A stretch of 64,000 nucleotides of DNA from a virus. Each line of letters opens with the position of its first letter. The stretch's first letter is position 1. Of this stretch, positions 5,089-56,102 are shown one piece after another. A model generated the notes under the pieces. It saw only the letters and a program-made list of their open reading frames with translations. It was not told the origin of the DNA and ran no database searches. The position numbers were made by a program, and so were the translations under genes. The stretch lies in IMG/VR virus record IMGVR_UViG_3300029214_000148. One strand, 5' to 3'.

Positions 5089-5131
5089 ATTTCACATTAA
5101 TATTGTAAACATTTAGTTCATTGAAAGGAGA
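5089..5131 (+). promoter_or_regulatory. family-2 promoter/leader (TTTCACATTAATATTGTAAAC ... TGAAAGGAG) upstream of sigma factor gene
   Basis: same motif as the cassette island at 16.9-20.6 kb. Confidence 0.4.
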
Positions 5132-5138
5132 AAAGATT

Positions 5139-5849
5139 ATGAACAGACAAAAATTAAACCGCCTGAATAAGCTGGCGGAAAAAATCGGAAACGGAAACCA
5201 GGAAGAGACAAATCAGGCGTTTGAAGAAATGATGGGAATTTACAAAAATGAATTTCGACTCATTATTAGCTTTTGGGCGCAGCGGAAAAATTATTCCCTT
5301 GACAGGGATGATCTTATTCAGATTGCGTCATTAACACTGTTTCAGACGGCCATCAAATGGAATAATTCCAACCGCGGGCGCGATTTTGCATGTTATGTAA
5401 ATCCGGCTATCCGCGCAGCACTTATCCGGGCAACATCCGAGGATGCCCCAATCCGCGTCCCTTATGGCTCACAGCAGAATAAACGCGCCAAAAGGCAGAA
5501 GAGAAAAGGACAAGATAAGATTCTTGTGGACAGCACGGAGCGTATCAAAGTGCAGAATGATTCCTGGGTTGAAGGGACAACCCGTTCGCCAATGGAAATC
5601 GTCCTTGAGAGGGAACAGGAAAATACCCTGTATGCAGCCCTCCAGAGACTTTCAGAAATGGATCGCGAGATCATCATGCGGCACTATGGCATTAATCACG
5701 AAAGGGAGAGCTACAACGAGATTGCTGAAGACCTTGGAGTGACTAAACAGTGTATCAATTATAGACAGAACCGCATCTTTGCACGCCTCAAAGAGATTCT
5801 GTGTGATGAGCTCCAGTTCGATTCAACGGAAATCCTCGCAATGGGATAA
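5139..5849 (+). CDS. sigma-70 family RNA polymerase sigma factor (element-encoded)
   Basis: ATG 7 nt after AAAGGAG; region 2-like DLIQIASLTLFQTAIKW; C-terminal region 4 HTH EIAEDLGVTKQCINYRQNRIFARLKEI. Confidence 0.7.
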   Translation: MNRQKLNRLNKLAEKIGNGNQEETNQAFEEMMGIYKNEFRLIISFWAQRKNYSLDRDDLIQIASLTLFQTAIKWNNSNRGRDFACYVNPAIRAALIRATSEDAPIRVPYGSQQNKRAKRQKRKGQDKILVDSTERIKVQNDSWVEGTTRSPMEIVLEREQENTLYAALQRLSEMDREIIMRHYGINHERESYNEIAEDLGVTKQCINYRQNRIFARLKEILCDELQFDSTEILAMG

Positions 5850-8760: not shown

Positions 8761-8852
8761 CTTTCATCAAATTCTTCCAGTTTACATACGCGGAGCCTTC
8801 AAAAGCCAGCTCCGCGTTCCATTCAAAAAACACAAATTTTCCTATTTTTTCT

Positions 8853-12683: not shown

Positions 12684-12776
12684 AAACTACCGATTATGGA
12701 ACATATAGATCAGCACACCGCACAGCGGTCCTCTGGAGTACCAGAGAAGAGAATGGAAGAAAGGAGGAAAAGGTAG

Positions 12777-13661
12777 ATGTCACAACTTATAGATAAAATC
12801 GTACAGGCGTTTAACTCCATTCTGGAATACCCTGTAAAAAAGCTTCTCGAGAACGCAATCGGAGAACAGCAGTTAAAATCCGTATTGAAGTTCCTGCAGT
12901 TATCAGCAAGCGGCGGATCCGGAAATCCAAATTACGCAAAAGTATTTGAAATGATAAATCTTATATTCAGCGTATTAAAACCGATTGGCTTTGCATTAAT
13001 TGCTACATTTTTCATTATCCATATGATCGAGGTCGTGTCCAAGGATGCCTTGACTTTAGACAGCTTTATCAAAGGATTAATCGGACTTGTATTAGTTATA
13101 TCAGTTGCGGCAAATGCAGCAGAGATTATGAATGCAATCTTTAACCTTGGTGAAAAGTTACTCATGCTCGTTTACAACAGCATTACTTCCCCTAAGAATG
13201 GCACAAACTTAAATTCTGTTATTAAAAATACCGCAAGTTCCATGGTTACAACCTACGGTGCCGGCTCCATAGCAATCGCATTAGTTATCTGGCTTGTCCA
13301 TCAGATCGTTATCATCGGTATTGATGTAGCTGCATTCTCACGAATTATTGATATCGGCTGGAGAGCCGCATGTATGCCTATCGGTATCGCGAATTCGTTT
13401 GAAGGCGGCGTAAATTCTTCTGGTGCAAAATTCTTCAAAGGCTTTGTAGCATCTGTCATATCGGGAGTTGTTATGGTTATCATCTGTGCAATTGGGTTTT
13501 CCTTATCAGCCGCTTTATTATCCTCACAAGCAGCCAGTCTTGCAACAAAATTTGTACATAAAGGAGCCATGACATTGATTGCAGAAGTAATCGCTGTAGA
13601 ATTTGCGACCATGGGAGCTGCAATCGCTGCACCAACAAAAACAAAAGAATTGTTTAATTAA
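12777..13661 (+). CDS. polytopic membrane protein, putative VirB6/TrbL-like channel component
   Basis: 294 aa, at least 6 predicted helices; AAAGGAGG RBS. Confidence 0.4.
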   Translation: MSQLIDKIVQAFNSILEYPVKKLLENAIGEQQLKSVLKFLQLSASGGSGNPNYAKVFEMINLIFSVLKPIGFALIATFFIIHMIEVVSKDALTLDSFIKGLIGLVLVISVAANAAEIMNAIFNLGEKLLMLVYNSITSPKNGTNLNSVIKNTASSMVTTYGAGSIAIALVIWLVHQIVIIGIDVAAFSRIIDIGWRAACMPIGIANSFEGGVNSSGAKFFKGFVASVISGVVMVIICAIGFSLSAALLSSQAASLATKFVHKGAMTLIAEVIAVEFATMGAAIAAPTKTKELFN

Positions 13662-21083: not shown

Positions 21084-21231
21084 CAACAAATCACTTAAGG
21101 GGGAATGGGAAACCGTTCCTTCTTTTTCTGCCTGCAAGCAGACGATGTATACAGTTTATTTCAAAAATTAAAATATGAGGTTTTTCAGTATACGGTTGTA
21201 AAAATATTTTTAAAAAACTTTCTAAATTCCT

Positions 21232-21258
21232 TTGACAATTTTCCAGATGGCGCAATAT
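21232..21258 (+). promoter_or_regulatory. family-1 conserved promoter (TTGACAATTTTCCAGATGGCGCAATAT)
   Basis: repeat family copy. Confidence 0.5.
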
Positions 21259-21261
21259 GTG

Positions 21262-21420
21262 TATTGTAAAGGTCATAAACCGGGCTGCCAGGGTTACCGG
21301 CTGGCAGAAATCCTTTCGAAAATGTTTACGCTTCCGGGAAAACCCGGAAAGGAGCAGGAGGACAGCAGCACATGCTGCTTCCGGGTGCGATTCCCGGATG
21401 CTTCTTTTACAAGACCGCAC
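21262..21420 (+). ncRNA. conserved structured leader RNA, copy A
   Basis: About 160 nt shared with copies at 33.1 and 38.2 kb. Nested hairpins GCTGCCAG/CTGGCAGC, CCGGGAAAACCCGG, GCAGCACATGCTGC, and a T-arm-like CCGGGTGCGATTCCCGG followed by a U-rich tract. Confidence 0.45.
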
Positions 21421-21471: not shown

Positions 21472-23772
21472 ATGAATCAGAATAAGAAGATAGCAGAGAA
21501 AAAATCAAGACCATACCAGCAGGAATGCATTGATAAGGTAGACAGCTTAAAAGAAGGAAGATTCCTGATTGCTCTTGCAACAGGGCTTGGGAAGACATGG
21601 ATCTTCTCCCATTTTAAGAGATACGGAAGAGTGCTTATTCTTTCACACAGGGATGAACTGGTCAACCAGCCGAGACGGTATTTCGACTGTAGTTTTGGCG
21701 TAGAAAAGGCAGAAAACCATTCCAATGGGGAAGAGGTAGTATCTGCGAGTGTTCAGACACTCAGCCATGACTCCCGTCTTAAGCAGTATAAGCCGGACGA
21801 TTTCCACACGATCATCATTGATGAGGCGCACCACGCTGCCGCGCCATCCTATAAGAAGATCTTAAATTACTTTTCCGGCGCTAAGCGTGTGATCGGTGTC
21901 ACGGCAACTCCGAAGCGTAGCGACAACGTCCGGTTAGATGACGTTTTTAACGAGATTATTTATGCAAAGGACCTTCGTTGGGGGATTAAAAATAAATATT
22001 TAAGTCCGGTGCACTGCCGGGAGGTCCGTGCAAAATATTCCCTGAAAGGCGTAAAAAAATCTATGGGGGATTTTAATGTATCCGATTTGGACGGTTGTAT
22101 TACGGAAGAAGCTGTAATAAGTGTTGCAAAAGTTCTTACAGACTGTCTTCAGGAGAATCGGCATATTCTTATTTATTGTACTACTGTCAGAACCTGTAAT
22201 TTCCTGAAGGCAGTAGTTGACAAACTGCTCCCGGAAAAAGAACGTGGCAGTGTTGCTGTTTTATCAGGGAAAACGCAGGAAGAAGATAGAAAAAATATGC
22301 TTGATGGTTTTATGAACGGGAGTGTCCGCGCCATTATTAACTGCATGGTTTTAACAGAAGGTACAGATCTTCCTATTACGGATACCATTATCAACTTCCG
22401 GCCGACGTGCAACGCGTCTTTGTATCAGCAGATCATCGGAAGAGGAACCCGGCTCTATGAAGGTAAGGAAAACTGTTTATGCATTGATATTCTTCCAGAT
22501 GATGGCAGCGGAACAAATCTGTGTACAGCTCTTACTCTTTTTGGTATAGATGCAAAACTTCTTGGAAAGAAACAGTCTCGAATGCTTGAAGGTGAGACTG
22601 ATCCGCTTGAGATTAGCGATGAAATTGCAGGACGATTTGCAGAACTTACAAAGGCATATGAATATCGGTTGGAGCAGGTTAATCGCTTTGTGCAGGAGCA
22701 GGAAGAAATTATATCTTCTGCGCGGAAGAAACCACATGCAGATTTAAACGACCTTGCGCATGCAGTAGATAAATATAATTCAAAGAAAATGGATGAATTC
22801 CAAAATGATTATGATTTCCTTGGAATGGATTACTCACTTATGCCGGATACGGAACATCGTTATTGTATCAAACCTACATGGAATGACCATATTTACCTTG
22901 CTGATCCAGATGTTATGGGAAATACAACAGTTACGTTTGATCTTACTGCTAGTGTCGGGAAATATTATATCGGTGAAATGAAAATGCAGGATGCAATTTC
23001 ATTTGTTCATGATTTTTGTATGATATCTCCAGATTATATGAAATATTCCTGGAACGTGGCATTACAGGATGAATGGGGGAAAATAAAAGCAACTGAAAAT
23101 CAAATTGGACGTCTTATGAATGAGTATGACGGGTTTCACAAAGGAAATATTAACAAACTTCAAGCATCCAGACTGATTGATCTTGCCTCTCGTATTTCGA
23201 AGATGAAGGCAGAGGGGAAAATGATGCTTATTACACCAAGAATGCAGGAAAAAACAATTGATAAAAAAAAGAAAATGTTTAAGGAAATACTCGAAAAGGA
23301 ACTGAGGGCAAAAGAGCAGGGGCGTAGTGAGTTTGGAGAATTCCAGTCGAAAATCTTTGCTTTGGCAGAAAAAAAGAAAAAAGACGAAGAGAAATTAAAG
23401 AACCAAAAGCCTTTGGAAGAAGAAATGCTCGAAAATGGGGCGATTACAGTTAATATTGCTGTTTTTAGTTCAAAAAAAACAGCAAGCGATGCGCAGATAA
23501 AATTTCTTGGTAATTTAAAAGATAAATTAAAAAACAGAGGAGTGGCTGTCGATAAAAAAATTCCTTATATAGGAATGGGAGCAGAAGAGGCAAGTGTATA
23601 TATTACTATATTAAAAACGCTTGTAGATCGTAACGTAGACCTTATAAAATATGGTAAAAAAATTTATTTTAATCCAAATACAATCATGAGTGTTGTATTA
23701 AAACTAAAGGACACTTCATCCAGAGAAATTAAATGTTGTATCCCGTTCGAAAAAATAGAAGAATTGAGATAA
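21472..23772 (+). CDS. SF2 (DEAH, ResIII-like) helicase with long C-terminal extension
   Basis: 766 aa; motif I ALATGLGKT; motif II IIIDEAHHAA; VTATPKR; no HD domain. Confidence 0.7.
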   Translation: MNQNKKIAEKKSRPYQQECIDKVDSLKEGRFLIALATGLGKTWIFSHFKRYGRVLILSHRDELVNQPRRYFDCSFGVEKAENHSNGEEVVSASVQTLSHDSRLKQYKPDDFHTIIIDEAHHAAAPSYKKILNYFSGAKRVIGVTATPKRSDNVRLDDVFNEIIYAKDLRWGIKNKYLSPVHCREVRAKYSLKGVKKSMGDFNVSDLDGCITEEAVISVAKVLTDCLQENRHILIYCTTVRTCNFLKAVVDKLLPEKERGSVAVLSGKTQEEDRKNMLDGFMNGSVRAIINCMVLTEGTDLPITDTIINFRPTCNASLYQQIIGRGTRLYEGKENCLCIDILPDDGSGTNLCTALTLFGIDAKLLGKKQSRMLEGETDPLEISDEIAGRFAELTKAYEYRLEQVNRFVQEQEEIISSARKKPHADLNDLAHAVDKYNSKKMDEFQNDYDFLGMDYSLMPDTEHRYCIKPTWNDHIYLADPDVMGNTTVTFDLTASVGKYYIGEMKMQDAISFVHDFCMISPDYMKYSWNVALQDEWGKIKATENQIGRLMNEYDGFHKGNINKLQASRLIDLASRISKMKAEGKMMLITPRMQEKTIDKKKKMFKEILEKELRAKEQGRSEFGEFQSKIFALAEKKKKDEEKLKNQKPLEEEMLENGAITVNIAVFSSKKTASDAQIKFLGNLKDKLKNRGVAVDKKIPYIGMGAEEASVYITILKTLVDRNVDLIKYGKKIYFNPNTIMSVVLKLKDTSSREIKCCIPFEKIEELR

Positions 23773-23945: not shown

Positions 23946-24180
23946 AGTTGCACCACGCAAGGGTGCAGGGGTGAAATATTATACTGAATCGTCGCTGCCT
24001 GCATAGATATAGTTGCATCCCTTATGGGATGTATGGGTTGAAATTCAATAGAAACAGATGCATTCGGAGGTGTTACAAGTTGCACCCCCGCAAGGGGTGC
24101 ATGGGTTGAAAATAAGAAATGGTAGGAAGGAATTCAGATATGAACATTAGTTGCATCCCGCAAGGGGTGCAGGGTTGAAA
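23946..24180 (+). CRISPR. degenerate small array, 4 repeats (GTTGCACCCCGCAAGGGGTGCATGGGTTGAAAT-like), 3 spacers
   Basis: repeats at 23946, 24011, 24078, 24149 with spacers of 34-37 nt; spacer 2 near-identical to spacer 2 of the array at 41014. Confidence 0.7.
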
Positions 24181-24343
24181 TAAAAGGATGTTGCCATATA
24201 TGTCAACCGAACTCGGCTATTGAATAACCGAGCATGAGGAAGCGGTTCTTCGGAACCGATGAATCATCCAGTATGACTGGTGAAGCGATGGTATACATAT
24301 TTGAACAAATCAAACAAAAATACAGAATCAGAGGAGAAATAAC

Positions 24344-32962: not shown

Positions 32963-33109
32963 GCTTTTATGGTGAGAGTTTTATTTTTGATCATGGCGAA
33001 ACGATACCAAAGAAAGTCCGGTTTGCAGTGTACGAAAAATGCAACCACCGGTGCAGTTTTTACTTCGAAAAGATCGGACTGGATATGGCGTAAGTTTTTC
33101 AAAAAATCT

Positions 33110-33136
33110 TTGACGATTTTTCAAAAGGCGCAATAT
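33110..33136 (+). promoter_or_regulatory. family-1 conserved promoter
   Basis: TTGACGATTTTTCAAAAGGCGCAATAT. Confidence 0.55.
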
Positions 33137-33139
33137 GTA

Positions 33140-33290
33140 TAGTGTAAAGGTCATAAACCGAGCTGCCAGGGTTACCGGCTGGCAGAAAATCCTTTCGAAA
33201 AATGTTTACGTTCCGGGAAATCCCCGGAAAGGATAGTGGGTACGCAGCGCAAGTTATTCCGGGTTCGACTCCCGGATATCCTTTTTCAAA
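33140..33290 (+). ncRNA. conserved structured leader RNA, copy B
   Basis: same architecture as 21262..21420; T-arm-like CCGGGTTCGACTCCCGG. Confidence 0.45.
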
Positions 33291-34457: not shown

Positions 34458-34509
34458 GAAAGAAGCCGGGGAATCCCGACTTTTCTGCTGCATTGTGTGT
34501 ATATTTTAA

Positions 34510-34582
34510 CGCCGCCTGCGGGATTCGAACCCGCGGATAAAGAGTTCAAAGCTCCCTGCGTTAACCTTTTCGCCAAGGCGGA
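34510..34582 (-). tRNA. tRNA-Gln (anticodon TTG)
   Basis: Manual fold. T-arm GCGGG-TTCGAAT-CCCGC; anticodon loop CTTTGAA; D-arm GCGA/ACGC. Position 1:72 is a U-C mismatch. No encoded CCA. Confidence 0.55.
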
Positions 34583-34583
34583 G

Positions 34584-34651
34584 CACACCCGGAAGGACTC
34601 GAACCCTCGTTACCGGTTTTGGAGACCAGTTTCTGTCCATCAGACAGGTGC
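34584..34651 (-). tRNA. tRNA-Trp-like (anticodon CCA) with truncated D-arm
   Basis: Anticodon stem-loop CTGGT-CTCCAAA-ACCGG and T-arm fold well; only 68 nt; D-arm TCTG-ATGGA-CAGA is abnormally short. Confidence 0.35.
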
Positions 34652-34655
34652 ATAA

Positions 34656-34726
34656 CAGGCGATAATGGAATCGAACCATTGTTTTCTGAGTCAGAATCAG
34701 ATGTCTTACCATTGAACGAATCGCCC
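34656..34726 (-). tRNA. tRNA-Gln (anticodon CTG)
   Basis: Anticodon stem TCTGA/TCAGA perfect; loop TTCTGAC; 4-nt variable loop; acceptor GGGCGAT/ATCGCCT. Confidence 0.55.
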
Positions 34727-34728
34727 AG

Positions 34729-34802
34729 TATCCCCAAAGGGACTCGAACCCTTAACCGACAGATTAGAAATCTGTTGCTCTTTCCAATTGAGCTATGGGG
34801 GT
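34729..34802 (-). tRNA. tRNA-Arg (anticodon TCT)
   Basis: Anticodon stem ACAGA/TCTGT; loop TTTCTAA; D-arm GCTC-AATTGGAAA-GAGC; one acceptor mismatch. Confidence 0.6.
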
Positions 34803-34808
34803 ATATAG

Positions 34809-34898
34809 CGCAGACACCGGGGATCGAACCCGGACAGCGGGTGTGCCGCATGCCACATTAGCAGTGTGGAGGGGTACCATTTACCTTTATATGTCTGC
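34809..34898 (-). tRNA. tRNA-Ser (anticodon GCT), class II
   Basis: Anticodon stem CCACA-CTGCTAA-TGTGG; long variable arm GCGG-CACA-CCGC; acceptor GCAGACA/TGTCTGC. Confidence 0.6.
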
Positions 34899-34903
34899 AT
34901 AAG

Positions 34904-34975
34904 AGGCATCGGAGGGGATCGAACCCTCGCCTTCCGGGTTGCAGCCGGACGCCTTCGCCGTTTGGCTACGATGCC
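34904..34975 (-). tRNA. tRNA-Cys (anticodon GCA)
   Basis: Acceptor GGCATCG/CGATGCC perfect; anticodon stem TCCGG/CCGGA; loop CTGCAAC. Confidence 0.65.
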
Positions 34976-35005
34976 ATATAATTCTTCCCGATAAGAGAAG
35001 ATGAG

Positions 35006-35089
35006 CGCTGTGGCAGGGAGTCGAACCCTGATATCCTTTCGGAATGACGGTTTTCAGGACCGTTGCTTTACCAGTTGAGCCACCACAGC
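35006..35089 (-). tRNA. tRNA-Ser-like (anticodon TGA), class II, with C at position 33
   Basis: Acceptor GCTGTGG/CCACAGC; anticodon stem ACGGT/ACCGT; loop CCTGAAA; variable arm TCC-GAAA-GGA. Confidence 0.5.
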
Positions 35090-35197
35090 AAAAATAAAAG
35101 CATACACCTCTCAATCGAAAGATGTATGCTTTGTAATTCCAGGTATTTCCAATATTCTCCCGGAAATTTTCCTACAATGACCACATTTCTTTCAATT

Positions 35198-35278
35198 TGA
35201 GACAATATTTATTTGCACGACAACTACGCCAGATACATGACTGCGACTGACTCATACTTGCCTGTGAATATTGTCTCA
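35198..35278. repeat. 12-bp inverted repeat pair (TGAGACAATATT ... AATATTGTCTCA) separated by 57 bp, inside the tRNA cluster gap
   Basis: read directly; lies between the two tRNA sub-clusters. Confidence 0.5.
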
Positions 35279-35334
35279 TTACTGCTGTAATCATTGATTT
35301 TCCCTTCCTTTCCTTGGTTTTCTTGAATATTTAG

Positions 35335-35408
35335 TGTGTCTGGTGGGACTTGAACCCGACGACCCCACGATTAAAAGTCGCGTGCTCTGCCAACTGAGCT
35401 ACAGACAC
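35335..35408 (-). tRNA. tRNA-Lys (anticodon TTT)
   Basis: Acceptor GTGTCTG/CAGACAC perfect; D-arm GCTC-AGTTGGCA-GAGC; anticodon loop CTTTTAA; weak T-stem. Confidence 0.6.
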
Positions 35409-35413
35409 ATAAG

Positions 35414-35485
35414 CGGATCAGGAGGGAATCGAACCCTCATCTTCCGGTAGACAGCCGGATGTACTAGCCGCTATACTACAGATCC
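35414..35485 (-). tRNA. tRNA-Asp (anticodon GTC) with U at position 37
   Basis: Anticodon stem TCCGG/CCGGA; loop CTGTCTA; D-arm GTAT-AGCGGCTA-GTAC. Confidence 0.55.
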
Positions 35486-35489
35486 ATAA

Positions 35490-35562
35490 AGCTCCCGTCC
35501 GGCTTCGAACCGGAAACCTTCTGATTACAAGTCAGATGCACTACCAGTTGTGCTACAGGAGC
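35490..35562 (-). tRNA. tRNA-Thr (anticodon TGT)
   Basis: Acceptor GCTCCTG/CGGGAGC; D-arm GCAC-AACTGGTA-GTGC; anticodon stem TCTGA/TCAGA. Confidence 0.65.
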
Positions 35563-35646
35563 AGGAACACTTCCGACGGGTGCTGCCCCGCTATCTCCGC
35601 CGTGACAGGGCGGTGACTCTGTTGTTTGTCCTCGGAAGTAAATAAG

Positions 35647-35728
35647 TGCGCCGGGGAGGACTCGAACCTCCGGTGTTTCTTTGTGGCTGATTTACAGTCA
35701 GCTGCTGTCGCCTCTGAGCCACCGACGC
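35647..35728 (-). tRNA. tRNA-Tyr (anticodon GTA), class II
   Basis: Acceptor GCGTCGG/CCGGCGC; anticodon stem GCTGA-CTGTAAA-TCAGC; long variable arm. Confidence 0.6.
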
Positions 35729-35733
35729 ATAAG

Positions 35734-35806
35734 CTGGTCCGGAGGGTCTCGAACCCTCAACGCCCCGGTTAACAGCCGGGTGCTCTACCATTGAGCTACG
35801 GATCAG
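35734..35806 (-). tRNA. tRNA-Asn (anticodon GTT)
   Basis: Anticodon stem CCCGG/CCGGG; loop CTGTTAA; D-arm GCTC-AATGGTA-GAGC. Confidence 0.6.
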
Positions 35807-35878
35807 AGCATGTGACGGGTCTCGAACCCGCCCGTCCTGCTTGGAAGGCAGGTGTGCCGCCAACAACACTTCACATGC
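35807..35878 (-). tRNA. tRNA-Gly (anticodon TCC)
   Basis: Acceptor GCATGTG/CACATGC perfect; anticodon stem CCTGC/GCAGG; loop CTTCCAA; A at position 8. Confidence 0.6.
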
Positions 35879-36431
35879 ATGCGGATAAAAGAAGTGCCTG
35901 TTTTCTCTTATCCATTCAGTTTTTTACCGCATCGCTGCGGAGTGGACAGGAGTGGTAACGATCCACCCTGTAAGGATTTTCAGTCCTTCGCTAATCCATC
36001 TCAGCTACCTGTCCATGGCTTTTTCTGCAATAAAAAAGCCGCATCAAGAAATTTCCTCTTCTCTCTGCGGTCATCTGCGTTTTGCAATATTTCGGTTTTA
36101 AGTGCCTGGTTTAAAATCGAAATCGACCGCGGGAAGGTGTATCATAATAGTTCTGTCCCCATGTTTTCCCGGATTTTGAGCATGAGAAACTAAACATATT
36201 GCTGAAATCGCCGTATGTTCTACAATCATTATTAAAATTTTTACTACTCATCATCTTTAACATGGTTTTCTTTTCCTTTCATTTTAATTAATGCTGGATA
36301 AACAAAAAGCCCGTCACTTAACTCAAAGCTACACATCCAAATAGCTCTGAGTTAAAAGACAGGCACTTCTTTTATCTCATGCACCTATCATATCATACTG
36401 ATCGTGAAGTGTCAACAGGAAATTTAAAAAA

Positions 36432-37622: not shown

Positions 37623-37728
37623 TTGCATTCCAGTGGAATGCATGGGGTGAAAGAAATAGGCAAATCGCATGACAATTTCTGAAATTAAATTGTTGCGCTC
37701 CCGTGGAGGGGGGCGTATGGATTGAAAT
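37622..37728 (+). CRISPR. small array, 2 degenerate repeats + 1 spacer, in the 3-prime UTR
   Basis: GTTGCATTCCAGTGGAATGCATGGGGTGAAAG / 38-nt spacer / GTTGCGCTCCCGTGGAGGGGGGCGTATGGATTGAAAT. Confidence 0.55.
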
Positions 37729-38058: not shown

Positions 38059-38135
38059 GTTTTGCTCCTTTCAAAATACTTTCGTTTACACTTTCAATAT
38101 GAAATGAAAATATTTCAAAACATTTCCAAAAACTT

Positions 38136-38162
38136 TTGACGATTTTTTAAATGGCGCAATAT
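38136..38162 (+). promoter_or_regulatory. family-1 conserved promoter
   Basis: TTGACGATTTTTTAAATGGCGCAATAT. Confidence 0.55.
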
Positions 38163-38335
38163 GTATCATGTAAAGGTCATAAACCGAGCTGCCAGGGTTA
38201 TCGGCTGGCAGAAATCTTTTCGATATTTGTTTACACTCCGGGGAAACCCGGAAGGGGTAGTGAGGACGCAGCGTGTGCTGTTTCCGGGTTCGATTCCCGG
38301 GTATCCCTTTTGACTGCCACATACGGTCTTCTCAA
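38163..38335 (+). ncRNA. conserved structured leader RNA, copy C
   Basis: same core as copies A and B; T-arm-like CCGGGTTCGATTCCCGGG; followed by about 250 nt of extra leader before the gene. Confidence 0.45.
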
Positions 38336-39317: not shown

Positions 39318-39422
39318 GCTGCATCATGTGCGGGGGTGTATGGATTGAAATGTCGGAGTATGGTGTAAGAATCATATATATTCCTACGTTGTGCTCCTCC
39401 CGGTTGGTGCATGGGTTGAAAT
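39318..39422 (+). CRISPR. small array, 2 degenerate repeats + 1 spacer, in the 3-prime UTR
   Basis: GCTGCATCATGTGCGGGGGTGTATGGATTGAAAT / 36-nt spacer / GTTGTGCTCCTCCCGGTTGGTGCATGGGTTGAAAT. Confidence 0.5.
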
Positions 39423-40993: not shown

Positions 40994-41013
40994 GTAAGAA
41001 GATATACTTTACT

Positions 41014-41232
41014 GTTGCGCCCCATTGGGTGCATGGGTTGAAATCTTTATGACCTTCTGAAAAGTGAGGGCATCTTAGTTGCACCCCCGCAAGGGATGTA
41101 TGGGTTGAAATTCAATAGAAACAGATGCATTCGAAGGCGTTACAAGTTGCACCCCGCGAGGGGTGTATGGGTTGAAATTGCAGAAAGCTCAGGATTGGAA
41201 GGTTGCATCCTATGGGATGCATGGATTGAAAC
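41014..41232 (+). CRISPR. small array, 4 degenerate repeats + 3 spacers
   Basis: repeats at 41014, 41078, 41146, 41202; spacer 2 (TCAATAGAAACAGATGCATTCGAAGGCGTTACAA) matches spacer 2 at 24044 with 2 mismatches. Confidence 0.7.
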
Positions 41233-41308: not shown

Positions 41309-41336
41309 CAATTTTTTAAAAATTTTCCAAAATCTT

Positions 41337-41363
41337 TTGACGATTTTTTAAAAGGCGCAATAT
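41337..41363 (+). promoter_or_regulatory. family-1 conserved promoter
   Basis: TTGACGATTTTTTAAAAGGCGCAATAT. Confidence 0.5.
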
Positions 41364-41598
41364 ACATATTGAAGGGATAAACAGGGGCTTACCGTTTGTT
41401 TCTTCAATAAGAGTTTTTCTCTTATATGCCTCCTTAAGTTTCCTGCGCTGCATTTACAGCATTTTGGCAGCGCAGGGGGAATCCACAGGACTGCATTTGA
41501 CGTTGTGTGGCGGCCTGCTCATCCGGTTCAACCCCGGAGGATTCCCATACCGCTTATTTTTGCGGAGACAAAAATTTTAAAAAATATTCAAAAATTCT

Positions 41599-41625
41599 TT
41601 GACGATTTTTTTAAAGGCGCAATAT
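41599..41625 (+). promoter_or_regulatory. family-1 conserved promoter upstream of the cas operon
   Basis: TTGACGATTTTTTTAAAGGCGCAATAT; leader shares GAAGGAATAAACAGGGGCTTGCCG with the 41337 copy. Confidence 0.55.
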
Positions 41626-41678
41626 GTGTATTGAAGGAATAAACAGGGGCTTGCCGCTGTTGATTACCAGAGTTAAAA

Positions 41679-41718: not shown

Positions 41719-42393
41719 ATGGAAAAAGAAAAAATGGGAGTGAAACTAAAAGTCTGGGGAGATTACGCATTGTTCACCAGACCAGAACTGAAAACTGAAC
41801 GGTATACATACGATGTGATGACACCGTCGGCGGCTAGAGGAATTCTGGAATCTATCTACTGGCATCCGGGACTTCGGTGGTATGTAGACAAGATTCATGT
41901 ATTAAATCCGATTGCCACTACGAGCGTGAGAAGAAATGAACTTCTCAGTAAGATACCAAAGTCAAATATGCTGCAGGCATACAACGGCGGGGATGTGAAA
42001 CTGTATAACTCGTCAAGAGACGATATTATCCAGAGGGCATCTGTTATTCTCCGGGATGTCTGCTATGTGATTGAGGCGCATTTTGAAATGACAGGGAAAG
42101 CGAGCCCAACAGACAGCCCGGCAAAGTTTATAAGTATCTTTAACAACAGGGCAAGAAAAGGGGCATGTTATTCGATGCCGTATTTTGGTGTAAGGGAATT
42201 CCCGGCACACTTTGAACTCTGCGAAGGAGATGAAAAGATCCCATCCTACTATGAAGGACTTTCGGATAAGGATCTCGGGCTGATGCTTTATGATCTGGAT
42301 TACTCCTGCGGTAGAGATATCCAGCCAATGTATTATCATGCGATTATGAAAAACGGCGTTATTGACGTTGGGAACAGTGAGGTGCTTCGATGA
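41719..42393 (+). CDS. cas5: Cas5c (Cas5d), type I-C
   Basis: KLKVWGDYALFTRPELKTERYTYDVMTPSAARGILESIYWHP matches the Cas5d N-terminal signature. Confidence 0.85.
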   Translation: MEKEKMGVKLKVWGDYALFTRPELKTERYTYDVMTPSAARGILESIYWHPGLRWYVDKIHVLNPIATTSVRRNELLSKIPKSNMLQAYNGGDVKLYNSSRDDIIQRASVILRDVCYVIEAHFEMTGKASPTDSPAKFISIFNNRARKGACYSMPYFGVREFPAHFELCEGDEKIPSYYEGLSDKDLGLMLYDLDYSCGRDIQPMYYHAIMKNGVIDVGNSEVLR

Positions 42394-44129
42394 TCTTTCA
42401 GTCACTTGTGAAATTATATGAAACACTTGCGGATCAGGGAAAAGTGTCCCGTCCTGGCTGGTGTAATGCAAAGGTATCCTATGCGGTGGTTTTAAACCAT
42501 GATGGGACGATTAAAGATATTGTTTCCGTGAAACAGAAAGTGAAGAGAGGAAAGAAGACTGTTGAAATTCCAATAATTATGCAGGTTCCAGAGATGGTCA
42601 CCCGCGCTAACAACATTGCCTCCAGCTTTCTCTGCGAAAATGCAAAGTATCTCTTTGGAATTGACGAAAAGATGAGTTTGCGTACACTGGAATGTTTTAA
42701 GGCGGCAAAGAAAAAACATCTTGATATTCTTGATGTTGTGGATTCACCTGTAGCACAGACGGTATGTAACTTTTTCCGTTCATGGGATCCGGAACAGGCG
42801 TTGGATCAACCGGCTGTTGCAAAACTTGCAGAAGAGTTTTATAAAGGCGGAAACCTCGTTTTTGAAGTAGATGGGGAATATGTGCATGATGATGAAGAAG
42901 TCCGCAGGGCATGGATGGATTACAGCAGTGTACCATATGAAATGGTAACTGGAAGATGCCTTATTACTGGAGAGGAAGCGGAGATTGCCCGCACGCACGG
43001 GAAAATCAAAGGAGTTCCGGGAGCACAGTCATCTGGCGCGTCGCTTGTATCATTTAACGGAGCATCCCTTGAGTCTTATGAAAAAACACAGAGCTACAAC
43101 GCGCCGATTAGCACCTATGCGGCGTATGCATATGTGACCGCGCTGAATTACTTGCTTTCTACGGACGGGTATCACAGCAAGGTAGGAGATTCCATGGTGG
43201 TTTTCTGGACAGATTCCGGGGATGTGGATGATGTGAGCAGACTGCGGAAGATGATGGGAAATATCAATGAAAAGGATCACACCCTTACAGATACGGATGA
43301 AAAACTGTACGTCCTCTGCCTTGCACCAAATGCCGGGCGAATTGCAGTCCGGTTCTTCTATGAGGATGCGATCGGGGCAATCTGGGAAAACCTGTCCGAA
43401 CATGCCAGCCGGATGAAGATTGTAAAACCAGTATTTGAGGATCAAGAATTTATCAATATCTGGCAGATGCTCATGGAGACAGTCAACCAGAATCTTACAG
43501 ATAAAACACCTGTCCCGCATATGTCAGCAATGACGTTACAGTCAGTCATTTCGGATACACCGTATCCGCAGAGTCTGTATGCAGGTGTGTTATCTCGTAT
43601 CCGCGCGGAGCACAAAGGTGTTACTTACAGAAAAGCATCGATTATTAAAGCTTTTTTAATAAAGAACTACAAATGGGAGGAAGGAAAAAATATGGAAGCA
43701 TTAAATGAAGGCTGTAAGGATCGGGCATATATCCTTGGAAGACTGTTTGCGGTTATGGAAAAGGCACAGAAAGAAGCAGTTGGCAATATCAACCAGACAA
43801 TTTGTGATAAGTTTTACAATTCCGCGTGCACAACACCAAGATCGATCTTTCCAGTACTGATCAGGCTATCTAACAGTCATTTAAGTAAGTTGAAACGGAC
43901 AAAACCGGGGAGAGGATATTATTTTACAGCTAAAATGCAGGATTTAATGGATAAAATTCCGGTAACAGATGATGATCCGGGATTTCCGCGGCGTTTCTCA
44001 TATGAGGATCAGGGTAAGTTTGCACTTGGTTATTATCATCAGATGCGGGCGGAATATACAAGCAGTAAGTTAAAAGATAATGATTCAGAAGGTGATCAGA
44101 CAAATGCAGAGAATATGGAGGAAAACTAA
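42390..44129 (+). CDS. cas8c: Cas8c (Csd1), type I-C large subunit
   Basis: 579 aa between cas5c and cas7c; N-terminus MIFQSLVKLYETL typical of Csd1. Confidence 0.7.
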   Translation: MIFQSLVKLYETLADQGKVSRPGWCNAKVSYAVVLNHDGTIKDIVSVKQKVKRGKKTVEIPIIMQVPEMVTRANNIASSFLCENAKYLFGIDEKMSLRTLECFKAAKKKHLDILDVVDSPVAQTVCNFFRSWDPEQALDQPAVAKLAEEFYKGGNLVFEVDGEYVHDDEEVRRAWMDYSSVPYEMVTGRCLITGEEAEIARTHGKIKGVPGAQSSGASLVSFNGASLESYEKTQSYNAPISTYAAYAYVTALNYLLSTDGYHSKVGDSMVVFWTDSGDVDDVSRLRKMMGNINEKDHTLTDTDEKLYVLCLAPNAGRIAVRFFYEDAIGAIWENLSEHASRMKIVKPVFEDQEFINIWQMLMETVNQNLTDKTPVPHMSAMTLQSVISDTPYPQSLYAGVLSRIRAEHKGVTYRKASIIKAFLIKNYKWEEGKNMEALNEGCKDRAYILGRLFAVMEKAQKEAVGNINQTICDKFYNSACTTPRSIFPVLIRLSNSHLSKLKRTKPGRGYYFTAKMQDLMDKIPVTDDDPGFPRRFSYEDQGKFALGYYHQMRAEYTSSKLKDNDSEGDQTNAENMEEN

Positions 44130-44130
44130 G

Positions 44131-45042
44131 ATGAGCACACCAATTAAGAACAGATATGATTTCGTAGTATTATTCGACGTAGAGAATGGAAATCCGAACG
44201 GTGATCCGGATGCCGGAAATATGCCGAGAGTTGATCCAGAGACTGGCATCGGGCTTGTGACAGATGCCTGCATAAAGCGCAAGATCCGTAACTATGTGGA
44301 AACTGTAAAAGAAGATGCAGCCGGGTTCAAGATCTATATTAAAGAGGGGGTCCCGCTGAACCGGAGTGACCTTAAGGCAGTCGAAAGTCTTGGTATTGAC
44401 GTCGGTGACGACAAAAATGCACTTGAAGATGTAAAGAAGCTGAAAAAGACAGATGAAGATGTGGATCTTAAGCTCCGTGACTATATGTGTAGTAATTTCT
44501 ATGATATCCGTACATTTGGTGCTGTCTTGACTACCTTTACAAAGGCGGCATTAAACTGTGGGCAGGTACGTGGCCCGGTACAGATTGGTTTTGCAAAAAG
44601 TATTGATCCTGTTTTCAGCCAGGATATTACTGTAACCAGAGTTGCAATCACAACGGAAAAGGATGCGGAAAAGAAAAATACAGAAATGGGAAGAAAGAGT
44701 ATTATTCCTTATGGACTTTACCGTGTGGAGGGATATATTTCTGCTAATCTTGCCCGTAAGACCACCGGCTTTTCTGAAGACGATCTGGAACTGCTTTGGG
44801 AAGCAATCATTAACATGTTTGAGAATGACCATTCCGCAGCACGCGGGAAGATGGCAGTGCGTGAGCTCATCGTATTCAAGCATAACAGCGAGCTTGGCAA
44901 TTGTCCATCGTACAAACTGTTTGAAACTGTTGATGTTAAGAAGAATGATGGTGTTGAGTTTCCTCGTAAATATTCCGATTATGCAGTGACTATTCATGAG
45001 GATGCGATTCCGGATGGCGTGACAATGACTCGCAAAATCTAA
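44131..45042 (+). CDS. cas7: Cas7c (Csd2), type I-C
   Basis: VLFDVENGNPNGDPDAGNMPRVDPETGIGLVTDACIKRKIRNY is the Csd2 signature; start ATG after TGGAGGAAAACTAAG. Confidence 0.85.
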   Translation: MSTPIKNRYDFVVLFDVENGNPNGDPDAGNMPRVDPETGIGLVTDACIKRKIRNYVETVKEDAAGFKIYIKEGVPLNRSDLKAVESLGIDVGDDKNALEDVKKLKKTDEDVDLKLRDYMCSNFYDIRTFGAVLTTFTKAALNCGQVRGPVQIGFAKSIDPVFSQDITVTRVAITTEKDAEKKNTEMGRKSIIPYGLYRVEGYISANLARKTTGFSEDDLELLWEAIINMFENDHSAARGKMAVRELIVFKHNSELGNCPSYKLFETVDVKKNDGVEFPRKYSDYAVTIHEDAIPDGVTMTRKI

Positions 45043-45292: not shown

Positions 45293-46069
45293 GCTACGCC
45301 CCATGGAGGGCGTATGGATTGAAAATTGTATAGCCATCCCTGACAGCTTCCTCATTAGACGCTACGCCCCATGGAGGGCGTATGGATTGAAAATCTATAC
45401 TCTATTATGTGATGTACTAATGTCGCTGCTACGCCCCATGGAGGGCGTATGGATTGAAAATGATTGTTATTGGTTTTTATTCATGGAGAGGAAAGCTACG
45501 CCCCATGGAGGGGCGTATGGATTGAAAAGTAAGGTTTCGTCTCGAAGCCTTTATTCTGTTTTGCTGCGCCCCATGGAGGGGCGTATGGATTGAAATACCA
45601 AAATCTTTTGACATTCTTATAAATGGTAACAGCTACGTCTTATGGGGTACGTATGGATTGAAATCATAATAATTGTAGAGATCTCAATACAAAATAAAGC
45701 TGCGTCTCATGGAATACGTATGGATTGAAATGAAAAGGCGAGTTTGCGAAAGCAGATATTGGAATGTTGCGTCTCGTGGAGTACGTATGGATTGAAATTC
45801 CAACTTTAACTACATAACTATCCTGATAAACTTGCTGCACCCCATGGATAGTGTATGGATTGAAATTTAAAAAATCATGGATAACATCTGCGATAAGACG
45901 TTGCACCTCGCTAGGGGTGTATGGGTTGAAATTTCCATAATCGGTAGCCAATTATTATCATTAGGTGTTGCACCCCATAGAGGGTGTATGGATTGAAATT
46001 ATATAAAAATGATGAATATGTAAAAAAAATAAAAGAGTTACGCTCCATGGAGTGCGTATGGCTTGAAAC
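45293..46069 (+). CRISPR. type I-C-like array, 12 repeats in three repeat subfamilies, 11 spacers
   Basis: Repeats every 66-70 nt. Subfamily 1: GCTACGCCCCATGGAGGGCGTATGGATTGAAAAT (R1-R5). Subfamily 2: GCTGCGTCTCATGGAATACGTATGGATTGAAAT (R6-R8). Subfamily 3: GTTGCACCCCATAGAGGGTGTATGGATTGAAAT (R9-R11). R12 is degenerate. 3-prime handle GTATGGATTGAAAT conserved throughout. Confidence 0.8.
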
Positions 46070-52773: not shown

Positions 52774-52788
52774 TTTCTTGCGGAGCAG

Positions 52789-52861
52789 AGCAGAGGAAGG
52801 CTCACCGGGCTCATGACCTGGGTGTCGGATGTTCGATTCCTTTCTCCGCAATTAATTTTAA
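52789..52861 (+). tRNA. tRNA (anticodon CAT; Met or Ile2) on the plus strand
   Basis: Acceptor TGCGGAG/CTCCGCA perfect; D-arm GAGC/GCTC; anticodon stem CCGGG/CCTGG; loop CTCATGA; weak T-stem GGATG/CCTTT; C at position 8. Confidence 0.5.
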
Positions 52862-53916: not shown

Positions 53917-53961
53917 GAAAATTTTTCTAACCGGTATTAACGGCAATAAGGAGGGAAAATC

Positions 53962-54366
53962 ATGGATAATCAGATTAACATTAAATATATGTTCACCGTG
54001 ATCGGTGGAGGCTGGACGCGTGTATCGAGGGCGTATTTTATTGCTGATGATAGAGTTTATTTTTTAAATAAGTTTTCACCAGCGGATTTAAAAATGTTTG
54101 AGAATCATTTTGATGATATCACAGCTACACTTGCTTCCGTGAATTTTGACACAACCGGGCTGGATTTTGTGAATCATGGCACGAATGTAGGTTTTGATAT
54201 GCCGACAATTACCATGTACCGGTATGAAAATGGGAAATACAAAAAATTGTGGTCAGAAGGGGATTATCGAAATTCAGAAGCTGTCGATACAATTCAGAGC
54301 ATTTTTCAGGATTCCGGCTACCTGGCAAAAGGGGGAAACCGGTCTGCAAATACCGCTACTTCATGA
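53962..54366 (+). CDS. hypothetical protein
   Basis: 134 aa; AAGGAGGG RBS. Confidence 0.45.
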   Translation: MDNQINIKYMFTVIGGGWTRVSRAYFIADDRVYFLNKFSPADLKMFENHFDDITATLASVNFDTTGLDFVNHGTNVGFDMPTITMYRYENGKYKKLWSEGDYRNSEAVDTIQSIFQDSGYLAKGGNRSANTATS

Positions 54367-54533
54367 GTGGGATGTTTTACCCGACTGACGGAAACGAATA
54401 CGAGATCAATATTCCATCTCCAGTGATACATGACTCTAAAGAAGAAGCTATGGCTGATGGAAACTTTGGTTACCGCTTTATACAGATAGATAGATCGGTT
54501 GGACCGGTAATCGTTATATTTGAAAGTCAATAA
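54363..54533 (+). CDS. small hypothetical protein, ATGA-coupled
   Basis: 56 aa; start overlaps the upstream stop. Confidence 0.3.
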   Translation: MSGMFYPTDGNEYEINIPSPVIHDSKEEAMADGNFGYRFIQIDRSVGPVIVIFESQ

Positions 54534-54845
54534 CCCATCACTAAAGTGACGGGCTTGTGTTTCAGCCACTACACAGTGGATATGCAGGCCCGATATTGAC
54601 TAGCCTAAGTGCTTCGGGCACTACGTTAAGAGAGAATACATAGTTACCTGCGGATGTAATGCCTAGTCTGCAGCAATAAGGGGACGTATTAAACAGTTTC
54701 ATTGGGGTGGAACAGTGTGCGGCAGATAAAGATGTACCTTTATCTCTTATCCATATAAACCTCTCTTAACATTGGCGAAGGCATTTTAACCACACTTCGG
54801 TGTGAGTACTTAAATCCGAAAGGATTTCAGAAAGGAGCATGACCT
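54534..54845 (+). ncRNA. putative IscB omega RNA (OMEGA guide RNA scaffold)
   Basis: 312-nt GC-rich noncoding tract directly abutting the iscB start, with multiple hairpins; position matches the known upstream omega-RNA arrangement of IscB loci. Confidence 0.5.
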
Positions 54846-56102
54846 ATGGTTTATGTGTTATCAAAAACCGGACAGCCTTTGATGCCGACAGAGAACCATG
54901 CAAAGGTCCGTGTTCTGTTAAAACAGCAAAAGGCAAAAATAGTACACGGCTGTCCGTTTACCATACAGTTGCTGTATGACAGTACAGACTATACACAGCC
55001 GGTAAGTCTTGGCATTGATGCCGGAAGCAGGCATATCGGCGTATCTGCCACTACGGAAACGAAAGTCCTGTACGAAGCAGATGTGACACTCAGAAACGAC
55101 ATCGTGGATCTTTTATCTACACGCCGGGAAGCACGGCGCACCAGAAGAAGCCGAAAGACTCGCTACCGCAAGCCGCGGTTCAATAACAGAACCCGCAAGG
55201 ACGGCTGGCTGGCTCCGTCCATACAGCAGAAGGTGGATACGCACCTTACTACGGTGCGCAAGGTAACGGAGATACTTCCAGTAAACAGCATCACGGTGGA
55301 AACTGCATCATTCGATATCCAGAAGATCAAGAACCCGGACATAGCCGGTACTGGCTATCAGCAGGGCGAACAGCTCGACTTCTGGAACGTACGTGAGTAT
55401 GTACTCTTCCGTGACGGCCATAAGTGCCAGTGCTGTAAAGGGAAGTCAAAAGATCCAGTGCTTAACGTGCATCATATCGAAAGCCGTAAGACCGGAGGAA
55501 ACGCACCGAATAACCTGATCACACTCTGCGAAACATGTCACAAGGGCTATCATAACGGTACCGTAAGCCTGCCGAAAAACATCAGGCGCGGCATGAAATT
55601 TAACGATGCTGCATTTATGGGTATCATGCGGTGGGCCTTTTTCAACAGGGTAAAGGAGACCTACGAGCCGCTTGGCATCATGGTAAAAATGACATATGGC
55701 TATATCACAAAAAATACAAGGATAGAGCACGACCTGCCGAAGGACCACTTCATCGATGCCAGATGTATCAGCGGGCACCCGGATGCAACAAGTGACGGTA
55801 CAGTCTTTTATCAAAAGAAAGTGCGCTGTCATAACCGCCAGATCCATAAACAGAAGATATTAAAAGGCGGTATCCGCAAACGGAACCAGGCCCCGTACCT
55901 GGTGAAAGGATTCCGGCTGTTTGAAAAAGTCAAATACCACGGGAAACAGTATTTTATCTTTGGCAGAAGGAGCAGCGGTTTTTTCGACATAAGGACTTTA
56001 GATGGCACCAAAGTAAATAAAGGCAGTGTAAGCTGTAAAAAGATCAGATCTTTGGACATGCCACGTAGCTATTTAACAGAAGAAAGAAAGGCAATAGTTT
56101 AG
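54846..56102 (+). CDS. iscB: IscB RNA-guided nuclease (PLMP domain, split RuvC with HNH insert)
   Basis: PLMP motif LSKTGQPLMPT; RuvC-I LGIDAGSRHIGVS; Arg-rich bridge helix RREARRTRRSRKTRYRKPRF; HNH CQCC...HHIESRKTGGNAPNNLITLCETCH; RuvC-III HFIDA. Confidence 0.8.
   Translation: MVYVLSKTGQPLMPTENHAKVRVLLKQQKAKIVHGCPFTIQLLYDSTDYTQPVSLGIDAGSRHIGVSATTETKVLYEADVTLRNDIVDLLSTRREARRTRRSRKTRYRKPRFNNRTRKDGWLAPSIQQKVDTHLTTVRKVTEILPVNSITVETASFDIQKIKNPDIAGTGYQQGEQLDFWNVREYVLFRDGHKCQCCKGKSKDPVLNVHHIESRKTGGNAPNNLITLCETCHKGYHNGTVSLPKNIRRGMKFNDAAFMGIMRWAFFNRVKETYEPLGIMVKMTYGYITKNTRIEHDLPKDHFIDARCISGHPDATSDGTVFYQKKVRCHNRQIHKQKILKGGIRKRNQAPYLVKGFRLFEKVKYHGKQYFIFGRRSSGFFDIRTLDGTKVNKGSVSCKKIRSLDMPRSYLTEERKAIV

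Follow-up and report, generated by a model that had tools for sequence, protein, structure and literature searches.

Why should a Cascade with no nuclease gene beside it keep, within its own array, a guide that reads like a promoter of the element that carries it? The question is raised by a stretch of 64,000 nucleotides from IMG/VR record IMGVR_UViG_3300029214_000148 (hereafter the window), in which a type I-C CRISPR array stands next to the Cascade genes cas5c, cas8c and cas7, and in which spacer 5 of the array carries an exact 15-mer, CCAAAATCTTTTGAC (spacer positions 2–16), that recurs in a promoter upstream of these genes. An initial annotation, based on the letters of the window, had located and spelled spacer 5 correctly and had rightly reported identity to the promoter at 15 of 15 positions, though the recurrence lies at 41327–41341, offset by 2 nt from the site that was given (41325–41339). 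It offered three explanations: a CreA-like partial self-match by which a cas3-less Cascade tunes the element's own promoters, a weapon against related competing elements that share the promoter, or a functional promoter captured within the array. The account favoured here, with moderate confidence, is that a nuclease-less plasmid Cascade uses spacer 5 to silence a toxin promoter on the chromosome of Roseburia faecis rather than to tune the element itself.

The target was found by a metagenome scan with the pattern of the element's promoter family, independent of the spacer, which returned a single related locus (L049). At this locus a family promoter is followed by a solitary I-C-type repeat and, ~150 nt on, by aaaa-TTC-ACCAAAATCTTTTAACATTCTTATAAATGGCAACA-TATGTAAAATGAAG, a site that agrees with spacer 5 at 33 of 35 positions and has TTC immediately 5' and the -10-like TATGTA of the family after it. 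As the alignment of this site with the element's promoter at 41326 stays in register far past the protospacer, the site is itself a member of the family. An open reading frame (ORF) of L049 is exactly the Roseburia protein WP_022044905.1, which occurs on 1000 contigs or more, the longest of 3.39 Mb, and six further loci (L068–L073) are chromosomal, with glmS, nadA, pstS-pstC-pstA, an island of ~6 kb and pstB-phoU-phoB/R. The match to spacer 5 is 33/35 in L049 and L068–L072 and rises to 34/35 in L073, because the -35 hexamer of this last locus is TTGACA, as in the spacer. A 5'-TTC protospacer adjacent motif (PAM) stands on the non-target strand in every one of the seven target loci. On sequence grounds, spacer 5 is an ordinary type I-C spacer of full length, with a full protospacer in trans to the element.

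Other searches were less productive. Spacer 5 and all other spacers gave nothing significant against PLSDB plasmids and INPHARED phages, L049 had no match in PLSDB, and scans of IMG/VR with spacers 0, 1 and 5, with the promoter family and with the target as spelled in L049 returned no matches or random ones only. When metagenomes were scanned for an exact copy of the 3' 26 nt of spacer 5, nothing came back; the real target differs at position 31. A degenerate spacer/promoter pattern, which required TTTGAC while most targets have TTTAAC, yielded nothing or random matches only among GTDB genomes. No full target of spacer 5 occurs on the element within the window or its 10-kb flanks.

In the target promoter the protospacer takes in the UP region and the -35 hexamer, together with 17 of the 18 bp between -35 and -10. 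TATGTA follows 18 bp past the -35, and ~80 nt on there is a ribosome-binding site (RBS; AAAGGAGG) with the ORF MITYSTLFEFCKLIVAIISLIFQIFNHKK, and then a terminator-like hairpin. The 29-codon peptide has a full-length match to the Pfam family Hol_Tox ('putative holin-like toxin'; 25.9 bits, cut-off 23.3) and resembles type I toxins such as PepG1 weakly, below threshold; in Roseburia faecis M72 the ORF is annotated in a 50-aa version. Downstream, a MerR-family gene has a canonical promoter of its own, and the target promoter appears to drive a monocistronic holin-like toxin gene. The island occurs in 3935 blocks of the collection versus 198 for the Cascade and, being far commoner, it suggests that the toxin is normally silent or harmless without the element.

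The same island carries a stand-alone gene for an RNA resembling a CRISPR RNA (crRNA), which adjoins the toxin gene (~9170–9020 on the minus strand in L068–L073; 355–230 on the minus strand in L049) and in which a family promoter is followed by a repeat of I-C type whose stem measures 9 bp, by a guide TTACAC[T/A]GCATAATCACC... and by a terminator-like hairpin. This guide, for which no clear target emerged, has no PAM-proximal match of 8 nt or more to the toxin promoter; one seed-only site with TTC lies elsewhere (L068, 9287) and is broken in L073. The predicted pairing between the crRNA-like RNA and the toxin mRNA is -43.7 kcal/mol, compared to -32.6 ± 4.7 kcal/mol for shuffled sequences. No host CRISPR-Cas locus is linked to the island within 10 kb on either side.

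How, then, does the element's own promoter come to share 15 nt with the spacer? Sites for the 15-mer at two or fewer mismatches number four in the window versus 0.37 expected (0 of 100 shuffles reach four), and the exact 15-mer match has E = 0.001 in blastn-short. The promoter-like family concerned (family 1 of the initial annotation; consensus ...TTTGACGATTTTT.AAA.GGCGCAATATGT....) is represented in the window by at least 12 copies, which with few exceptions stand directly 5' of transcription units; the flanks hold further copies. Placed in register with the copies at 41326 and 38125, spacer 5 agrees at 25 of 35 positions in each case, and because this identity includes the conserved TAAA(T/A)GG block, the spacer is homologous to the family over its full length. 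The match had been said to diverge after the 15-mer, which is correct in that mismatches are scattered past position 16 and incorrect in that identity in register continues. The whole of spacer 5 is best regarded as a diverged homologue of the promoter family and not as a 15-mer grafted onto unrelated sequence. Since the target promoter is a diverged member of the element's promoter family, the 15-nt identity to 41327–41341 reflects shared ancestry, and the partial self-match is, as far as the letters go, an ordinary consequence of promoter homology, of common descent rather than design.

A second line of evidence comes from a sister lineage, L040 (Cas5 94% identical; Cas8 and Cas7 of the related locus L035 ~90% identical). 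The array of L040 has six repeats and shares only one spacer, a homologue of spacer 11, with the array studied here. Spacer 3 of L040 matches the host island at 34 of 34 positions, on the opposite strand and with a TTC PAM, and its protospacer lies ~40 bp upstream of that of spacer 5. For two random spacers to fall ≤100 bp apart on a chromosome of 3.4 Mb the probability, taken over all spacer pairs, is ~0.003, and the chance of the PAM, 1 in 64 for each spacer, comes on top of this proximity. That an independent spacer of a sister lineage lands ~40 bp away argues for selection to hold Cascade on the toxin promoter region or, at the very least, for a common target that was retained.

Under the favoured account, Cascade (Cas5c-Cas8c-Cas7) loaded with the crRNA of spacer 5 (crRNA5) would form an R-loop over the -35/UP region of the toxin promoter and would block initiation by RNA polymerase without cutting. 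Binding without cleavage is expected because no cas3 is present in the 84 kb of the element that was read (the window with a 10-kb extension on each side, from a total of roughly 250–350 kb). The chromosomal toxin would be kept silent in element-carrying cells, with spacer 5 as an 'antitoxin' that works by CRISPR interference (CRISPRi) or as an anti-defence guide. Type IV-A plasmid systems and CreA/Cracr guides act by repression of the kind proposed here (PMC11656645; 10.1101/2024.10.29.618823). What is kept of the CreA-like idea in the initial annotation is a Cascade without nearby cas3 aimed at a family promoter, that of a toxin gene, while the self-tuning part is given up. The suggestion of related competing elements fares similarly, as the target does share the promoter family but sits in a Roseburia faecis chromosomal context and not on a competing plasmid.

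Several points weigh against this account. We infer the transcription block solely from the position of the site, and Roseburia faecis as the host of the element is likewise our inference. The toxin assignment comes from a single short Pfam match just above the cut-off, the target differs from spacer 5 at one or two positions (14 and 31), and the weak stem of the repeat 3' of spacer 5 is a caveat for 3' processing of the guide. A cas3 could be located in another part of the element, or a host I-C system could provide one. Further, no targets of the other array spacers were found in the plasmid, phage and viral collections, so that a general role of the array in silencing the host is at most a conjecture.

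A more elaborate scheme, possible but to be held tentatively, makes the island a chromosomal 'plasmid-sensing' cassette. Its two family promoters, those of the crRNA-like RNA and of Hol_Tox, would fire on arrival of the megaplasmid's transcription apparatus, for example a sigma-70-family protein, and the megaplasmid would counter with its nuclease-free Cascade. The element encodes a sigma-70-family protein that may be a candidate factor for the promoter family, the -10 of which is non-canonical. Such a scheme would be a CreTA-like conflict between chromosome and plasmid played out in trans, in which plasmid lineages would each have retained, independently, spacers of their own against one stretch of 100 bp, and the same circuit could act as post-segregational killing on plasmid loss. 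As an alternative to such a trap, the circuit may make the host dependent on the plasmid.

The rival that survives best, though we consider it unlikely, holds that spacer 5 is a neutral relic acquired from host DNA by adaptation in trans, tolerated since the system cannot cleave and without any regulatory role. Spacers do come and go at the leader end: across five loci with identical Cas8c (L001–L005), the leader-proximal spacers differ through the gain of a first spacer, a loss and a duplication, and as the adaptation genes are absent from the part of the element that was read, uptake is presumably in trans. This turnover agrees with the relic, as do the missing targets of the other spacers and the 1–2 mismatches between spacer 5 and its known targets. 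The relic would not predict, however, that spacer 5 (along with all distal spacers) is unchanged in 5/5 array variants while its neighbours turn over, that the independent spacer of L040 lies ~40 bp away with a TTC PAM, or that the target falls exactly on the -35/UP region of a toxin promoter, where binding by itself works best. The array as a whole appears to be maintained rather than decayed. Within the repeat stems 93% of cells are paired, four of the six pairs show double (compensatory) changes, and the covariation score was reached by no shuffle; the hairpin is kept though the repeat sequences differ, the first four repeats being near-identical and the distal repeats all different.

Other features of the array and its surroundings were observed. 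Spacer 4 (45529–45562), just upstream of spacer 5, holds a 9-bp hairpin with a T-rich tail and resembles an intrinsic terminator. Positions 1–15 of spacer 10 (45933–45966) match exactly at an intergenic site (12687–12701, minus strand) upstream of the ORF 12777–13661 in the module of the type IV secretion system (T4SS). The PAM position of this self-site is ATG, no similarity extends past position 15, and 7 of 10 other copies of the element have a T instead of the window's G; a full target of spacer 10 was found in none of these 10 copies. Spacer 9 (45867–45899, positions 5–18) matches 14/14 at 53956–53969, over the RBS and start of the ORF 53962–54366, with the four PAM-proximal nt mismatched, and may do so by chance (E = 0.005 per spacer). 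Mini-arrays or solitary I-C-type repeats stand behind genes at 24012–24181, 37696–37728, 39319–39422 and 41012–41232, some of them directly 3' of family promoters, and two of the mini-arrays have one spacer in common (24045–24078 and 41112–41145, 32/34). These mini-arrays and solitary repeats could be crRNA-like regulators or decoys.

The self-regulation first proposed would have crRNA5 act as a CreA/CreR-like guide whose partial match directs Cascade to 41326, where it would autoregulate the cas genes and array or the family-1 promoters, and it is now improbable. Its attraction lies in 15 contiguous matches (spacer positions 2–16) at a promoter directly upstream of cas5c and in the leniency of related systems. 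In type I-C of Legionella pneumophila TTT is the second-best PAM and the seed change T1A, a mismatch at position 1, relieves interference only partly; TTT is functional in L. pneumophila and B. halodurans I-C alike (PMC5602111). For crRNA-like regulators, ~9–14 PAM-proximal base pairs suffice (10.1101/2024.10.29.618823). At the 41326 copy the PAM position is TTT (41323–41325), position 1 is mismatched, positions 2–16 are identical and scattered mismatches follow. Because L. pneumophila I-C tolerates TTT and, in part, a change at position 1, weak self-binding of Cascade may occur at this non-canonical target. The recommended check for a TTC next to each promoter copy, once run, showed none beside a matching seed. 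The PAM positions of the 12 own copies read ATT, TTC, ATC, CTT, CTT, ATT, TTT, TTT, ATT, TTT, TAT and ATT; the only TTC in register belongs to the copy at 8842, the seed of which is fully mismatched, and spacer position 1 is mismatched in 12/12. With no TTC and seed together in register, position 1 always mismatched and pairing that stops after position 16, the element's own promoters are probably largely spared by crRNA5. The promoter nearest cas5c (41588) matches spacer 5 poorly, at 21/35. In L035 and L040 the cas promoter is of the same type (GCAAAATCTTTTGAC), yet the array of L040 has no homologue of spacer 5. Finally, spacer 5 is part of a regular array rather than a degenerate mini-array, and the partial self-match calls for no explanation of its own once a nearly perfect target of full length, with TTC, is known elsewhere.

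Upstream of cas5c there are two tandem family promoters (41310–41394 and 41572–41656, 262 nt apart), and the transcribed starts behind the two are alike (GAAGG.ATAAACAGGGGCTT.CCG). At cas5c, L035 and L040, the sister lineages, possess just one promoter, with only a degenerate solitary repeat where the element has a mini-array. A repeated unit of ~160 nt (21203–21363, 33081–33241, 38107–38267) begins at a family promoter, and a tRNA-like T-arm (TTCCGGGTTCGAnTCCCGG) comes after it; T-arm-like copies at 21379, 33257, 38282 and 38526 are called tRNA by neither ARAGORN nor Rfam.

Genuine interference, in which a Cas3 from elsewhere on the element or from the host destroys island-bearing DNA and so excludes or competes with a mobile island or donor DNA, is very unlikely. 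The canonical PAM and near-complete match would allow it, and related Lachnospiraceae often have complete I-C loci that include cas3. Against it, tblastn with the proteins of a complete Lachnospiraceae I-C locus detected no cas3, cas4, cas1 or cas2 in the window and its 10-kb flanks, so that the description of the Cascade as cas3-less holds over the 84 kb. In all six chromosomal loci, moreover, the island sits between pstA and pstB, with no mobility genes seen there, and identity between the Cas8c of the element and that of host type is only ~49%. Beyond one 90% cluster, the homologues of Cas8c belong to chromosomal complete I-C loci (45–52% identity), and a scan of GTDB genomes for Cas8c relatives gave nothing or random matches only. 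The helicase at 21472–23772 was considered as a Cas3 and rejected, being RadD/EcoAI-like with no match to an HD domain or to the Cas3 C-terminal domain. A type I-C CRISPR-associated transposon was likewise rejected, as Tn7-like tnsA/B/C, transposase and TniQ domains are absent among the neighbouring genes. That spacer 5 is a captured promoter firing inside the array to drive the distal spacers is hardly credible, for although it has a perfect TTGACA after an A/T-rich stretch and a terminator-like hairpin just upstream in spacer 4, the protospacer stops just before the -10, the position 18 nt past TTGACA is occupied by the repeat (GCTACG, not -10-like), and a consensus scan gives no promoter starting in spacer 5.

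Coordinates of the features discussed are collected below. All three Cascade proteins exceed the Pfam and NCBIfam cut-offs for type I-C. Among the other products of the window are a CD1110-family VirB4 (752 bits), PrgI, a PcfJ-like protein, topoisomerase III and methyltransferases; 14 tRNAs are present, and nearly all genes lie on one strand. Proteins of the window occur in hundreds of human-gut assemblies, on contigs that cluster at 246–356 kb with none >1 Mb, and no chromosomal genes were seen in the parts read of contigs carrying element genes. VirB4 and PrgI, the contig sizes and a T4SS region that is 99% identical across ten such contigs fit a conjugative megaplasmid of roughly 250–350 kb, which is what the element looks like. 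Thirteen of the tRNAs form a cluster (34509–36014) on the minus strand, opposite to almost all protein genes, and one tRNA-Met lies on the plus strand (52778–52852). A HEARO RNA (Rfam RF02033, 115.6 bits) stands directly 5' of a protein with RRXRR and HNH domains (54526–56102), and the pair looks like a module of the IscB/omega-RNA type.

Coordinates of spacer 5, its array, the Cascade genes and related features in the window
Feature	Position	Strand	Description
Sigma-70-family protein gene	5121–5849	+	Region 4 above Pfam cut-off, region 2 weak
Second-best own family copy	38125–38159	+	PAM position ATT; mismatches at positions 1 and 8; 25/35
Own family promoter, best self-copy of the protospacer	41326–41360	+	Upstream of cas operon; 25/35
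cas5c (Cas5d)	41719–42393	+	TIGR01876, 177 bits, cut-off 85
cas8c (Csd1)	42390–44129	+	TIGR01863, 399 bits, cut-off 219
cas7 (Csd2)	44131–45042	+	TIGR02589, 343 bits, cut-off 182
Main type I-C array	45293–46069	+	12 repeats (~33 nt, 3' end ATTGAAA[N]), 11 spacers
Repeat upstream of spacer 5	45563–45596	+	5' handle; strong hairpin, -15.3 kcal/mol
Spacer 5	45597–45631	+	Guide; between repeats 45563–45596 and 45632–45664
Repeat downstream of spacer 5	45632–45664	+	Diverged; weak stem, -3.9 kcal/mol

The idea of self-tuning is largely explained away and is replaced by that of a mobile element's nuclease-less I-C Cascade directed against a host toxin promoter. If true, Cascade-only type I systems on gut megaplasmids would be working regulators, and their 'degraded' arrays would not be decaying immunity. 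A natural CRISPRi against host genes would be documented outside type IV-A, where it is already known, and a conflict between chromosome and plasmid in an abundant gut butyrate producer would be seen to be fought via shared promoter families. The target is unusual and directly testable, and a defined PAM (TTC), guide and target are available for experiments.

Among known systems, CreTA offers a first comparison. According to the account in PMC10120712 of Li et al. 2021, the crRNA-like antitoxin CreA guides Cascade to repress the toxin CreT. The system described here resembles it in that a guided Cascade would sit on a toxin promoter and repress without cleavage, and the host island has the same layout, a crRNA-like gene beside a small toxin gene. 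It differs in having a full-length canonical spacer in a regular array, where CreA is a partially matching degenerate mini-array; in placing guide and Cascade on a conjugative element and the toxin in trans on a chromosome; in a toxin that is a Hol_Tox-type peptide, where that of CreT is an RNA; and in that the island's own crRNA-like guide has no convincing match to the toxin promoter. Mini-array origin, a match that is partial only and co-conservation of guide and promoter, which characterise CreA/CreR, were not found for spacer 5. With CreR (10.1101/2023.03.10.532045) it shares a partial PAM-proximal match of a CRISPR-derived guide to a promoter upstream of cas genes, but the PAM and seed are non-canonical, and the guide is no mini-array beside the promoter, is not conserved in the sister lineage and has its full target elsewhere.

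The 'Hodor' conjugative megaplasmids of the human gut (PMC12934698) are similar in size class, habitat and the possession of a I-C system with divergent repeats. They differ in GC content (44.6–47.1% reported versus ~41% for the window), and the Hodor markers Rep_3, ParA/ParB/ParM and sortases are absent from the 84 kb of the element; the preprint describing them gives the array no function or target (PMC12934698).

Further parallels are found among guides carried by mobile elements. Cracr RNAs are crRNA-like RNAs, encoded on mobile elements, by which cas or creT promoters of the host are silenced, and such a guide shields the incoming element from toxin-mediated growth arrest (10.1101/2024.10.29.618823). 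Here, too, the guide of a mobile element is directed at the promoter of a host toxin, but Cracrs hijack host Cas proteins and mimic CreA with partial matches, whereas this element has its own Cascade and a full-length spacer. Type IV-A plasmid systems compete with other plasmids by transcriptional repression, acquire spacers in trans and include a spacer against the host gene pilN (PMC11656645; 10.1101/2023.06.23.546257). The likeness extends to an effector devoid of nuclease and adaptation genes on a large conjugative element, to signs of spacer uptake in trans, to a probable repression of transcription and to the targeting of a host gene in at least one case. In contrast to type IV-A, the effector is of type I-C (Cas5c/Cas8c/Cas7) with neither Csf proteins nor DinG, and the known target is a host toxin promoter and not plasmid genes. 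By membership, spacer 5, which lies between I-C repeats in an array adjoining cas5c-cas8c-cas7, is classed as a type I-C spacer used by a Cascade without nearby cas3; in its predicted function it is closest to the CreA/Cracr guides of toxin promoters and to the CRISPRi of plasmid type IV-A systems.

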